From NCBI GenBank assembly GCA_964016885.1, contig OZ024740.1, positions 82,832,001 to 82,896,000 of the forward strand: a stretch of 64,000 nt of DNA. The letters are read 5' to 3'. The notes beneath the pieces were generated by a model that did no database searches, was not told the origin of the DNA, and saw only the letters and a list, made by a program, of their open reading frames with translations. Position numbers and translations under genes: made by a program. The stretch comes from Eledone cirrhosa. Taxonomy: Eukaryota. Below, piece after piece: positions 2,932 to 42,257 of this stretch. The first letter of the stretch is position 1; each line of letters starts with the position of its first letter.

Positions 2932-3265
2932 AATATAAGATCAAAAGATGGTTAAAAGAGTTCCAAGTATTTTATTATGTGCATTTCAAAAACAAATATA
3001 ATCATGGGATGATATTTGCGTTCTCATCAGATAAAATAGGGATACATGATATTAAGCTTAAAAAACAATTGTGAACAGTGAAGTTTTAAATCAACATATA
3101 TGTTGATTTAAAACTTCACTGATCAAAAGTGTTTTTTAAGCTTCATATCATGTTTCCCTATTTTATGTGATGAGAACGCAAATATCATACCATGATGATA
3201 TTTGTTTTTGAAATGCGTATAATAATATACTTGGAACTCTTTTAACCATCTTTTGATCTTATATT
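2932..3265. repeat. ~334 bp loopless palindrome with a hammerhead motif in each arm
   Basis: Centre TCAACATA|TATGTTGA at 3098/3099; arms complementary with scattered mismatches; preceded by (TA)n. Confidence 0.9.
2970..3036 (-). ncRNA. type I hammerhead ribozyme motif
   Basis: Minus strand reads TTTTAT-CTGATGA-stem II-GAAA-TGCACA-TA-ATAAAA; mirror copy at 3161-3227 has GTGATGA and TGCGTA, giving a consensus palindromic stem III ATGCGCAT. Confidence 0.7.
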
Positions 3266-5419
3266 ATTTATACTCCAGTCCTATAAACTGTGGTGTGCTA
3301 CTTATCCGATATTTGCATTGCTTTACTGTTGCTACAATAAATCTCACCTCCTACACACATATATATATATATATATATATATATGTTTGTGTGTGTGTGT
3401 GTGTGTATATATACATAAATATATATATATATATATTTATGTATATATACACACATATATATATATATATGTAGGAGGTGAGTTTTATTGTAGCAACATA
3501 TATATATATATATATATATATATATATATATATATAGAGAGAGAGAGAGAGAGGGAGAGGGAGAGGGTAATATTAATCCGTTTCCGTTATTTTAATTTGT
3601 GTTTCTTGATATCTAGTACTGTATCAACACACAGTGGCTTTTAAGTTAACAAATAAATCGCTTTTCATAGATTTTCCGTGGTGATCAAACGTAGGTACAA
3701 TTAATGTAATTACTGGAGTATTTATATAGAAAATAATAAATCACATGAATACACCCCAATTTTTTTTGGACAGTTCACTATTGTTATTGTTGTTGCTATA
3801 AGACTAGGTAGGTATGAGTGTAGTTTGTGATAGTTTACTCCCTTAGTTTTAGTTCTTACTGCTTTCGGACCGTTTATTCTTGCCGAATGAGAACAACTAA
3901 TGTTGTTCTTTTTATTGAATTAACATATATTTGCTCAGTATAGTTGTTGATATTTTCATACGTTTATGACTTTATATAACCTAGGTTACTCCTTAGCAAC
4001 ACGCGTTCTCTCTCTATATATATAAACATTTACTTGTGCGATTAAGAAATTGTTAGACTTCGGCAACTCGATAGGTGAAACTGTGGACGCAGAATATTGG
4101 AATTCGAATTCTCAGAAAATATACATCGGATTAGCGAAACTAGATGTGCTAAATTCCATATTAACAAAACATATATCAGTTACATTAAAAACACTTATCC
4201 TTCAATTGCGAATATATATATATATATATATATATATATATATAAATGAGAGGTATAGAGATTGTTTTAGCAAGAAGCTAACGGCATTCTATAACATATA
4301 TGCGACTATAACGTCAAGATGGGAAAAGTAGTTAACGAAAGATTTAGGAAAAATAACTCAAACTCATCTCAAAAGAGAATCAGGATATAAATTCATCCAC
4401 AGAATTTAGTAAAATCCAGGGAAAATCTATAGACCTTTAACTCATGATAAAATAAAGTTTGAAACACTTATCCTTCAATTTGGAATAACATCAAATGCTC
4501 TGTATGGTCTTAAAAGACTATTTCATGAAAACTTTCAGTGGAGATGGTCACGGTTGGAATTTCAATCATCAGCAGAGCTCAACAGAAAACCAGGGCTCTC
4601 ACAGTAATATAATCCGAAAAAGGGAATTCTAAAACTGGCTAGTTCGCCTTCATGTGTATTTATGAAAAAGCACATGAGGAAAAAACGGGGCTAGTGACGT
4701 CAGGATGGAAGTGAATGTTTATTTACAAGAAATAGCAGTCAAATACATTCTGAAAAAAACTCTACAAAGGAGTTCAGCAAAATAGCAATATTATCACAGT
4801 TTTTATGAAAAAAACCGGGATTAGTCACTATAGTTTTGCGAGGTTTTTTATATGAAATCGTGTGTCGAAACAAATATTGTTATACTTGGGGAGGGTCATA
4901 TTTGTGTAATATCGCCAGAATTAATAACAGAACACACTCACTGTTTGGTTGGTTTTCGCTTTTCGCTTCTGAGTCTTTTATATCGGTAATCTTATTTATT
5001 CGGTCCTCAATGTTGCCATTGACTGACCAACGGTCAGAAATAATACAGATACAATATAGACACAAACACATATATATAGTTTATCAAAGTTCTTTCGTTG
5101 CACATCTGCAACATCGTCAGTGGTGCTATTGTTTCCTCCCGTTACATTGTATGTCTACGCCATCTTTATTTAGTCTGTTTATATATTTATTTATTTATTT
5201 GTTTGTTTGTTTATTTTATTTTGTCTTCTTTGCGCATGCGTTTGCGTGTGTGTATAGTGTTTTGTTTGATGTGTGTTCGTGATTGGGTGATTGTGTATTG
5301 GTTAATGTATTCTATCTTTACTAGTGTGTGTTTATATGTGTTTGTTGTTATTGTGCTTGTGTATGTATTTATTTATATATTTCTTTATTTATACTTCTCT
5401 TAGGTCAGTGTTGTTTGTT

Positions 5420-6602
5420 TGGGTGTTGTTGTTATTCCTTCATTCTTTCTGTTTAGTCTTGGCCTTCTAAGTTCTATTTCACTGGCCTCTCTGATTTGCC
5501 TATCTGCTGGATCATTTCTATGTTTAGATATTATTCTAATTTCTATCTTGTGTATGTTACCGTCGTGTTGTTGTCTGGCATGTTCGTATAGTACTGACCC
5601 GTGTTTTCGTCCTTTTAGTCCCCCCCCAGTGTTGGTCTATCCTTTCACCTATGCTACGAGCTGTCTCGCCTATGTATGTTGTTGTCGTGTTTCTGCAAGT
5701 ACACCCTGTACATCTTATGCTATTAGTACAGTGGGTTTTCTTAAAAGGGTAGGTTTTGCTGATCAGGGATTTTATGGTGGTTCCTGGCTTTTCTACCACC
5801 TTATTCTTTAAGTGGGTCTTTCTCAGGGCCATTCTACACTGGTTAGCTAATTTACCTCGAGGGGTAGCGTCCACAAACATGACACTCTGGTATCTCTGGT
5901 TGTCGTACCATGAGGTGGCTTTCCCTATCTTATGTCTAGCCCTATCTAAGCTATTCCATGATTGGCTCCTGTATAATGGGCCAATTCCTTTCATGTCCAG
6001 TTCTATGAGGGTCTTATACTTCTCCATGGCTCCTTCGTATACTCTGACTCTGTCTCTTTGGTTGTAGCCAGAGAACTGCATGCGGTTGATGAAGTGTTGG
6101 ATGTGTCTTTCCATCTCTGTAGGGTCGCACATGCGGGACGCATTCTTCATCACTCGTACCAAATCTACGATCAGAATATTAAACTTAGCACTACTACACA
6201 TTGCTGAGTTTTTGAGTATCAGGTATTCAGAGGCCATGGGTTTATCATAGTGTGAGTGGAGAATTTGGGCTCTCTCGTCTATAGTGTTAATCCAGAGTTC
6301 CGTGTCTAATACAGGTAGTCTATTGTTAGGGTGTTTGGAAGGGTAGTCGATAGTTACAGTTATACTCTGGTGTATGGAATTAGCTATCTGCTGGATGCTT
6401 TCCATTGTGCTACGTTCTAAATCAAACTTGTTAGTGCTCTCTAGTGAGGATGTGCTTATAACTATATTGATATCGTCTACGTAACGAGAGTACATGATGA
6501 GGTCTATGGAACTCTCATTAAGGAGATCTTTAAGGCTCCTTTCGCACCATACCATAAAAAGGTTGGCAACATCACCAGCTACGCTGACGCCAATGGCTGC
6601 TC
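5420..6602 (-). pseudogene. inverted copy of PLE RT C-terminus and GIY-YIG
   Basis: 332 aa ORF 5557-6555 nearly identical to 8723-9457; contains YIGETARSIGERIDQH. Confidence 0.85.
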
Positions 6603-6616
6603 AATAAGACATTAGA

Positions 6617-40635: not shown

Positions 40636-41306
40636 ATTAAAATAAAATTTAATTAGAATATTAAATAAATAATATACAATATTTTCTTTTTATATATATA
40701 TATTTTTTTATATTTTTTTTATATATACCTTTTCTGCTATTTTATTTATAAATCGTTAATAAGCTAAATAAAACAATTAAGTATTATAATATTACTTCAT
40801 CATAACTTTTACATCTATTTTAACTTTAAGTAGTATATAAACGAAGTAATCTTAAATGTTTCATATAAATTGACATATTAGGCAATAATACATACATTTT
40901 TTTCTTTTTAAGTAATTAGGGTAGAAACAATTCTTTTGAACTAATTTATTAATCCCATATAAGGATAACGTAGCCAGTTATAAATTAGCAAAGCCAATTG
41001 TTAGATATTTTCCGTTCTCATAATCTCCTTATAATATATAACCAGCAATTTCTCTGTCTGTCTGTCCGACAGTTGAAACACGTGCGCGCGTGGTTGCTAT
41101 CTCTCTCTCTCCAACTATCCTTTTCTTTTAGTCTGTCTGTTTCTCTCACTCTCACTCTTTCTCTTTGTAACACACTAACATTCCTCCCCTCTATCGCTGT
41201 GTCGAATGGGGAGATGGAGGAGGAGGAGGAGGAGAGAGTCACTTCGTCACTTCACCTCTTCCTTTCTTTCGCTGCCCTCTCACTCCCACATTACGTACAT
41301 ACATTA

Positions 41307-41499
41307 GGGCGGTGGATTGGCAGAATCTGTAGAGAGTCGGACACCATGCTTCACAGCATGGAGTTACGTCCCTTTACGGTCTGAGTTCAAATACCGCCGA
41401 GGTTAACTTTGCCTTTCATACTCACGGGGTCGATAAAATAAAGTACCAGTAATGTACTGGGTAATTGCTGGCCTTGTGCCAAAAGTAGAAACAATTATT
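41307..41499 (+). mobile_element. SINE, full length
   Basis: GGCGGTGGATTGGCAG...GAAACAATTATTA. Confidence 0.9.
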
Positions 41500-42014
41500 A
41501 GAAACATTGCTTCAATTTTACATATCTAAGCATTAGTAAAATAACTAATAATTTCAAAAGTAATTTTTCAATTCCAATTGTTATGAACAGCAAAATATTA
41601 ATAATAATTTTGTTCTAAGACATATATATACATTTCTGTGTGAGTAATATATATATATATATATATATATATATATACATACACAGAAATATATATACAT
41701 TTCTGTGTGTGTAATATATATATATATATACATACACAGAAATATATATACATTTGTGTGTGTGTAATATATATATATATATATATATATATATATATAT
41801 ATATATATATATATATATATATTGGTTACTTTCAGAAGAATCCGTTAAGGGTGAAAGCAGCGATTCTTTGTTTAAACTTTAATCTTTTATTTTAATAAAT
41901 ATATATATATATATATATATATATATATATATATATATATATATATATATATATATATATCGTTTATGAATTTGTTTAGCAAGATTATTTATCTGAAATC
42001 GTGTGTTGAAACCG

Positions 42015-42257
42015 ATATTGTTATACTTTGGGAGGGTCATGTTGCCAATAAGAAACACACGCACCAGTTGCTTTCACTTCAATTTATTGTATATTTATAA
42101 ATTTATAAATTTACAAATCTACAAACTTATAAATTTCTGGATGGTTGGTTGGTTCCACAACCAGATAGTTGTTTATATATATATATAAATTGAAGTGAAA
42201 GCAACTGGTGCGTGTGTTTCTTATTGGCAACATGACCCTCCCAAAGTATAACAATAT
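42015..42257. repeat. fold-back element with ~73 bp arms sharing the PLE terminus
   Basis: Ends ATGACCCTCCCAAAGTATAACAATAT, nearly identical to 10382-10407. Confidence 0.9.

Follow-up and report, generated by a model that had tools for sequence, protein, structure and literature searches.

The closest described relatives of the DNA considered here are the Penelope-like elements (PLEs), for which inverted pseudo-long terminal repeats (pseudo-LTRs), tails, a bias towards (TA)n and non-autonomous derivatives are on record (PMC8557442, PMC3846280); how their tandem and inverted repeats are formed is a question that Craig et al. (2021, PMC8557442) list as unanswered. In vitro, the PLE enzyme PAc cuts and extends both strands of its target, and its reverse transcriptase (RT) starts at two internal sites that bound the tail (PMC11167929). 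Retrozymes have already been proposed to be dependants of PLEs (PMC7229834; 10.64898/2026.07.22.740005), a link for which Li et al. (2026, 10.64898/2026.07.22.740005) rely, in the parts consulted, on co-occurrence and homology. Here, we analyse a stretch of 64,000 nucleotides (hereafter the window) from the 3.0 Gb genome of Eledone cirrhosa (assembly GCA_964016885.1, contig OZ024740.1, positions 82,832,001 to 82,896,000), in which an initial annotation, made from the letters alone, had noticed at least seven palindromes of about six sequence families, joined to (TA)n or (GA)n and partly carrying hammerhead ribozyme motifs. We conclude that these palindromes are probably head-to-head pairs of 5′-truncated PLE or retrozyme ends, built anew by priming of both strands on one RNA, and that the point at which many arms of families A, D, F and H stop is likely a transcription start.

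The palindromes, their families and their copies

All seven palindromes were recovered by self-alignment, and the count of six families held, the palindromes at 14689 and 22038 (B1 and B2) belonging to one family; the families were named A (2932), B (14689 and 22038), C (19306), D (21667), E (42015) and F (27730). Once microsatellites had been stripped, 11 local inverted repeats of 50 nt or more remained in the window, and none was present in any of 10 shuffles. Every one of the seven lies next to (TA)n, family F having (TA)n(GA)n on its left, and six possess the one-sided extension that had been described for the class, the exception being B2, which is extended on both sides; several of these extensions run further than had been recognized at first. 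Coordinates and mismatches are collected in the table.

The best matches to a query look like fixed units because they are selected by likeness to it, and pattern searches were therefore used instead; the candidate conclusion that the copies are fixed units, suggested by the top-match sets, was rejected as query bias. Exact matches to tail or arm/tail junction patterns numbered 24,319 for family D, 2,713 for A, 7,900 for F, 18,196 for B and 18,411 for E together with the family of the PLE found in the window, which gives at least 71,539 for these five sets, while reversed control patterns had 0 matches in the genome. These counts are lower bounds in which two-tailed insertions and tandem units are counted more than once. 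For family C, a first look returned 2,027 candidates.

Arm ends, junctions and a shared template

Ends and junctions were observed directly in copies taken in genome order from one contig (101 of D, 89 of A and 81 of F), in which an inverted partner was found for 75, 53 and 36 copies, respectively. Two outer ends are fixed, the TA site and the tail end 55–165 nt beyond it; in 159 of the 164 pairs the outer end of the partner arm is the TA site, and in the other 5 it is the tail end. A TA or CA run follows the tail in 29 of 30 unbiased copies of D, 29 of 30 of A and 30 of 30 of F. Since selection through the tail hides tail-less pairs, arm ends were also counted in loci chosen for other families, where 48 pairs had one tail end and one TA end, 2 had two TA ends, 1 had two tail ends and 8 had an unclassed end. 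Independent choice of the start site predicts that about half of the pairs are mixed; mixed pairs dominate, and each of the two sites thus serves one side of a pair.

The inner ends behave differently from the outer ones. Among the 164 pairs the tail-less partner is the longer arm in 53, the tailed arm in 43, and the two are similar in 68, and the junctions, whose classes are approximate because ends were taken from local alignments, are overlapping in 87, blunt in 19 and provided with extra bases in 58. Contigs from two samples, of unspecified record type and used solely for the joints, display many different joints and added letters, and the depth collapses at the palindrome centre. It had been asked at the outset whether all copies share one fold-back centre: the outer ends are fixed and the centres differ in most copies, so that the palindromes were not amplified as units.

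The two arms of a palindrome resemble each other more than they resemble the arms of other copies. In the copies usable for this comparison, top matches included (50 of 59 for D, 36 of 54 for A and 31 of 48 for F), arm mismatch is 1.6% within a copy versus 4.2% between copies in D, 2.8% versus 6.6% in A and 4.8% versus 6.9% in F, differences reached by 0 of 2000 permutations in each family. Common variants stand on both arms rather than on one in D (48 vs 5) and in A (70 vs 13). Judging from these arms, each palindrome is rebuilt from one template type.

A single cDNA could also give rise to like arms if, begun at the tail end, it folded at its own 3′ end and copied back to the TA site, with deletions of the centre at a later time. 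This snap-back, as in the self-priming idea of Arkhipova et al. (2013, PMC3846280), explains the identical variants in both arms, the one-tail rule and the perfect centres found at a 6-nt self-complementary word in family A. We regard it as unlikely, given that the tail-less arm is so often the longer one, at times by hundreds of bases (locus L250; 3.8 versus 1.7 kb in the PLE of the window), that five pairs have two tails, and that the PLE enzyme extends both target strands in vitro (PMC11167929). The first proposal, of fold-back or template-switch products of PLE retrotransposition, is supported as to the PLE origin, RT and GIY-YIG open reading frames (ORFs) being found upstream, and fits poorly as to simple fold-back of one cDNA, the tail-less arm being longer in 53 of 164 pairs.

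A fixed stop behind promoter-like motifs

In three families the arms end preferentially at one point, a direct observation: 107 of 176 D arms end in the stop window versus 9 in the next 60 nt, 61 of 117 F arms versus 6, and 33 of 142 A arms versus 13, and most D and F copies are stumps shorter than 350 nt that end there. Long copies, which continue through the stop, carry a TATA-like box (−29 in D, −30 in F and −31 in H, which is related to F) and a CCAAT word (−87, −80 and −76, respectively); the motif names (TATA-like, CCAAT, E2F-like) and the spacing that we take to be promoter-like are our own assumption. The chance of a TATA-like word in a 5-nt window is 0.004 for D and 0.044 for F, and TATA-like, CCAAT and E2F-like words are kept in 16 of 20 long F copies. 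A fixed stop in every family was considered and rejected, as E and the window PLE family have none, their 30 copies ending anywhere from −28 to −1572.

Family H provided an out-of-sample test. It has the upstream motif of F with a diverged spacer, from which a start at 28752 was predicted; the ends of 14 of its 33 arms fall no more than 2 nt from that base, and the interval from −6 to −161 has none; 20 of 33 end within −5 to +12, 8 being shorter and 5 long, the window copy among them. As a separate observation, H also contains a decayed hammerhead of the U3:A8 type, and similar sequence occurs in 29 of the 528 loci collected. We take the fixed stop in families A, D, F and H to be the likely place where transcription of the RNA begins.

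Twin priming may be correct and the stop nevertheless mark a place where RT pauses or RNA is processed, or the boundary of a small number of master copies, and to this we assign a low probability. Family A is without a TATA box and E without a stop, and the D stop, which lies inside loop II of the D hammerhead, falls at a pyrimidine-AG stretch resembling a splice acceptor, all of which would suit such a reading. It fits poorly with TATA and CCAAT at promoter-like spacing in D, F and H, with motifs conserved between F and H while the spacer diverged, with the few genomic bases that D arms often carry past the AG, with the long parents that all three D subfamilies have, and with the lack of any enrichment of arm ends at the hammerhead cut (17 observed vs 12.1 expected).

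Parent elements

Families A, D, E and F are, by the coding sequence of their longer copies, ends of protein-coding PLEs, two of them Hydra-type and two Neptune/Nematis-type: these copies continue upstream into RT/GIY-YIG ORFs, and in all four families pseudo-LTRs were found that are arranged in tandem or inverted and have a tail on one side, the tail continuing into the ORF at loci L296 and L172. Family F lies downstream of the end of an RT/GIY-YIG ORF, on the same strand, in 25 of 25 copies, and the parent ORF matches Pfam RVT_1 and GIY-YIG; its tail continues into the ATG of the ORF at locus L296. Family D is joined to a longer element in 4 of the first 30 unbiased copies, and its parent L308 encodes a 710-aa ORF with DKT, RWR, CxCX5C, CxxC and CxH and without CCHH, in agreement, by its motifs, with the definition of the Hydra clade; Pfam returned no match in this ORF. 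For family A, the C-terminus of a Hydra-type endonuclease (EN) lies 1.3 kb upstream in 2 of 30 loci, linker and EN being the parts seen. In neither D nor A was a continuation of the tail into an ORF start found.

Long copies of family E encode RT (RVT_1 below the Pfam cut-off, plus motifs) and GIY-YIG, in a protein about 60% identical to that of the PLE at 4833–10407, of which E is a sister family. The terminus that one palindrome was said at first to share with the window PLE is, in E, indeed alike, at 86% over 70 nt, in what are two families rather than one. A CX2-5CxxC linker and CCHH are present, as motifs, in the Neptune/Nematis-type parents of E and F and in the window PLE, and Pfam gave nothing significant in six ORF pieces of the latter.

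An asparagine/threonine-rich low-complexity insert was observed in the N-terminal part of the PLE ORFs of the window (6616–7476), L169 and L172, comparable to the N-rich inserts of rotifer PLEs as far as these are described. In the 3′ untranslated region of the F parent (L296:960–1843), a promoter-like block with CCAAT, E-box-like and E2F-like words is duplicated in tandem.

Families B and C are of another kind, being by their arrangement non-coding head-to-tail hammerhead units (about 430 and 590 nt) that fit non-LTR retrozymes. Units of B are spaced by 389–434 nt in 9 of 30 loci, which include three arrays counted twice, and those of C by 584–595 nt in 3 of 25, and the longest ORFs beginning with ATG measure 68 aa (B) and 75 aa (C). 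Across the 30 loci of B, 15 tails continue into a following unit and 12 inverted arms lie upstream. The window palindromes of B and C are truncated insertions of these head-to-tail families. These insertions bear the PLE signature of inverted partner, tail and (TA)n, a structural trait that points to PLE priming rather than rolling-circle insertion, and B and C would borrow the PLE enzymes. The non-autonomous ribozyme elements that had been suspected at first do exist, as B and C.

The further suspicion, that the palindromes propagate themselves, being copied whole from palindromic loci through hairpin RNA, now seems very improbable. The copy numbers are high, top matches resemble full units and non-coding hammerhead families do exist, as such copying would have it; these top matches are biased by the query, however, and in unbiased copies arms and junctions vary from copy to copy, short A, D and F copies have no sequence upstream of the stop, symmetric common variants (48 vs 5 in D, 70 vs 13 in A) would not be kept, and B and C propagate as head-to-tail units. 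Ordinary miniature inverted-repeat transposable elements (MITEs) of a TA-targeting DNA transposon, or fold-back chimeras of the assembly, would give long inverted repeats beside TA and deserve almost no credence, in view of one-sided tails, continuity with RT/GIY-YIG ORFs, arms differing by 1.6–5%, and varied joints in independent contigs with depth collapsing at the centre, from which we conclude that the palindromes are not chimeric; target site duplications are unreadable inside (TA)n.

Hammerhead motifs

Full or partial hammerhead cores had been attributed to four of the palindromes, and these are indeed there, complete in A (left arm, the right arm having C3>G), C (both arms) and F, and half in D; B1, B2 and E end short of the hammerheads of their families. 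Stem III is mutated in A and C, and stem I is weak in F. The 5′ half of the D hammerhead lies upstream of the stop and is found only in long copies. In family alignments the core is canonical in A and B and of the U3:A8 type, which has been described from PLEs of schistosomes (PMC4209133), in C, F and the D parent; A, B, C and F have a palindromic stem III. An intact hammerhead is present in 49 of 62 copies of A, 52 of 70 of B, 15 of 26 of C, 6 of 6 of the D parent and 69 of 88 of F, the counts for B, D, E and F not being independent, since their search patterns preset some core letters; in E the core is present in 45 of 45 copies and intact in 0 of 45 by the rule applied, because its stem III is not self-complementary.

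Searches of single copies gave weak or negative results. An Rfam scan of the window gave no hammerhead family at E≤1 and, below the cut-offs, microRNA-type hairpin matches alone; a strict descriptor of the full hammerhead matched 3 times in the window and 0–2 times in 20 shuffles, without excess; monomer folds were not significant (z −0.5 to −1.5); and a scan based on CUGANGA missed the hammerheads of C, D and F, which descriptors requiring this word overlook. The cores are accordingly recognized, on comparative grounds, through family-wide conservation and not through single-copy statistics.

A single minimal PLE hammerhead does not cleave in vitro according to the literature, and a palindrome has one per strand; activity of the window copies is therefore unlikely. 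Templates cleaved by the hammerhead were also considered as the source of the arm ends: ends within 3 nt of the cut number 7 in D (7.3 expected), 5 in A (3.1) and 5 in F (1.7), with p 0.03 for F alone, and the candidate is not supported overall. The finding agrees with PAc, of which uncleaved RNA is the main substrate (PMC11167929).

A proposed mechanism and what weighs against it

In the enzymology that we infer, the GIY-YIG endonuclease would cut both strands of (TA)n; one strand would be extended from the distal start site to give the tailed arm, the other from the proximal TA site to give the tail-less arm, and both cDNAs would copy the same RNA toward its 5′ end. On an mRNA starting in the upstream pseudo-LTR they would run off at its first base after 60–175 nt, and the two cDNA ends would be joined head-to-head, by microhomology or with added bases. 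Retroviral minus-strand strong-stop DNA is a comparable product, a short cDNA ending at the 5′ end of the RNA. In the twin priming of L1, two primers on one RNA give an inversion by copying two different segments; here both primers would copy the same segment, and a palindrome would therefore be formed. Priming at the 3′ pseudo-LTR, or else a jump, would yield the long copies, and the short A, D and F copies, because they are without the promoter-like upstream region, would be dead ends.

Several points weigh against this account. The stop windows were set on the first 30 copies of each family and counted on enlarged sets that include them, and the unbiased copies are confined to the first 10–152 Mb of one contig. 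Family A has no clear TATA box at −30, and E and the window PLE family have no fixed stop. PAc showed no strand preference of the start site in vitro (PMC11167929). In F, common variants stand on both arms 62 times and on one arm only 65 times, a pattern that we attribute, by assumption, to homopolymer runs. The likeness of the arms could also stem from gene conversion between them, and their unequal lengths from deletions that arose afterwards at the palindrome centres. Finally, 80 loci of B and C showed no same-strand PLE ORF immediately upstream, and no parent PLE was identified for these two families. Even so, two-strand priming on one RNA remains for us the probable origin of the palindromes.

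A bolder form of this idea is offered tentatively, as possible but doubtful: the stumps may be fossil strong-stop cDNA pairs, made when an enzyme dimer, with a subunit placed at either of the two fixed sites, primes both strands on the 5′ leader of the mRNA and runs off at the cap. A full copy would then need a retrovirus-like jump from this leader to the 3′ pseudo-LTR, failed jumps would be joined into tens of thousands of hairpins, and retrozymes would enter in the same way.

Features of the window

Table. Features of the window, with inverted repeats as found by self-alignment (mismatches/aligned positions)
Feature	Position	Strand	Inverted repeat	Remarks
Family A, two head-to-head arms	2932..3265		2925–3272 (26/348)	Hydra-type PLE 3′ end; both arms reach the fixed 5′ stop
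Family A tail, ~85 nt	3266..3354	+		followed by (CA)/(TA)n
Family A type I hammerhead, canonical C3:G8 core	2968..3038	−		mirror copy 3159–3229
Broken Neptune/Nematis-type PLE	4833..10407			tail 4833–4873, inverted arm 4874–6602 (−), long arm 6616–10407 (+) with RT and GIY-YIG pieces
Hammerhead cores of this PLE	5120; 10161	−; +
Family B (B1), retrozyme-like	14689..14868		14689–14820 (6/132)	truncated palindrome, tail 14821–14868
Family C, retrozyme-like	19140..19959		19306–19959 (55/653)	tail ~19140–19305 (sense −), then arms
Family C hammerhead, U3:A8 core	19791..19888	+		mirror 19378–19475 (−)
Family D	21667..21874		21667–21797 (3/129)	tail 21798–21874; Hydra-type PLE 3′ end; both arms at the fixed stop
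Family D hammerhead, 3′ half	21755..21783	+		GAAA, long stem III, GUC site, stem I strand
Family B (B2)	22038..22447		22030–22453 (32/402)	palindrome with a tail at each end
Family F	27730..27996		27730–27928 (35/193)	short tail-less arm; full tail-side arm from the fixed stop; tail to 27996; end of a Neptune/Nematis-type PLE
Family F minimal hammerhead	27826..27863	+		U3:A8 core, palindromic stem III
Family H, relative of F	28500..28940	+		long copy; CCAAT- and TATA-like motifs upstream of the predicted start
Family E	41960..42257		42015–42257 (20/228)	tail 41960–42014, long arm, short tail-less arm; truncated 3′ end
Decayed pieces of three more Hydra-type PLE ORFs	23638–23931; 29609–30142; 39830–40616	−; +; +
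Eighth family, same anatomy	22465–22640; 29519–29577; 41822–41917; 43939–44037
Further short palindromes	3327–3498; 27995–28149; 29890–29929; 31533–31590; 43293–43365			27995–28149 resembles family B; 43293–43365 is low-copy (2/528 loci)
SINE-like repeat, ~190 bp	1–194			at least 13 more places (e.g. 18289–18481, 41308–41501, 61588–61722)
Broken LTR retrotransposon	30778–36318			direct repeats 30778–31158 and 35979–36318, 82% identical; presumably Ty3/gypsy-like, with frames we take to be gag/protease-, RT- and integrase-like
Two pairs of duplicated non-LTR retrotransposon 3′ parts	44824–55842			end in (ATT)n; 44824–45593 with 48632–49402, 50050–51888 with 53926–55781
Two related elements, presumably L1/Tx1-like	46655–48430; 56131–61590			the second with ORF1-, endonuclease- and RT-like frames
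Transposase remnant, presumably mariner-like	61794–62698			between inverted repeats of ~100 nt, 92% identical
(TCT)n microsatellite	12723–13218			166 units
(AAG)n microsatellite	39393–39503			37 units

The eighth family has a TA-site end, a tail and an inverted partner in L282, and it matches 48 of 528 loci. In the flanks of these loci (L001–L528) families pile up in each other's (TA)n, with several frequently found inside 1 kb, as though every insertion provided a target for a later one, and a further hammerhead family with a canonical core recurs there (e.g. L294, L258). The repeat resembling a short interspersed element (SINE) stands several times directly behind the (ATT)n-ended 3′ ends of long interspersed elements (LINEs) and matches 125 of 528 loci.

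Comparison with known systems

The palindromes are mostly a known kind of element, and the end rules are what was not found in print: titles and abstract openings yielded no promoter-bounded stop and no one-tail rule, most subscription papers lying outside the search and the supplements of Craig 2021, Cervera 2014 and Frangieh 2024 possibly bearing on the matter. These rules (one tail per pair, one template for both arms, run-off at a promoter-defined point) are testable in vitro, and the proposed origin from two start points on one RNA, if true, would show how PLEs build inverted ends. The PLE signature on retrozyme insertions gives structural support to the link between the two, and, were host transcripts to run through the palindromes, double-stranded RNA would arise from them in large amounts.

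The PLEs with an endonuclease (EN+; PMC8557442, PMC3846280) share with the families described here copies truncated at the 5′ end, next to which stands another truncated copy in inverted orientation, a tail on one side that leads into the ORF start, a pseudo-LTR hammerhead and (TA)n targeting; the tails differ, being about 45–165 nt here and 30–40 nt there, and the D and F stumps at a fixed point and the one-tail rule were not found in the accessible text of those papers. With the Hydra clade (Craig et al., 2021) the D parent has in common a C-terminal EN, DKT, RWR for RWK, a CxCX5C linker, the absence of CCHH, CxxC and CxH, a hammerhead and (TA)n, and the A parent the same type of EN, a likeness by motifs; the D hammerhead departs from it in its U3:A8 core, its long stem III and the stop inside loop II. 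The Penelope of D. virilis, as described, has an internal TATA-less promoter, unlike the upstream TATA/CCAAT layout proposed here.

In Schistosoma mansoni, pairs of hammerheads on opposite strands, 100–700 bp apart and ascribed to truncated PLEs, have the same U3-A8 core variant and palindromic stem III (PMC4209133), while their ends, junctions and origin are not analysed in the parts of that study consulted. Animal non-LTR retrozymes (PMC7229834; Li et al., 2026, 10.64898/2026.07.22.740005) resemble B and C in being non-coding, head-to-tail and provided with a type I hammerhead, whereas B and C insert here with a PLE signature. The nearest biochemical parallel is PAc (Frangieh et al., 2024, PMC11167929), in which, as described, two internal RT starts bound the tail, both strands are cut and extended and hammerhead cleavage is dispensable; the genomic pairs examined here differ from it in showing one site per side and, as we read them, run-off at a fixed 5′ end.

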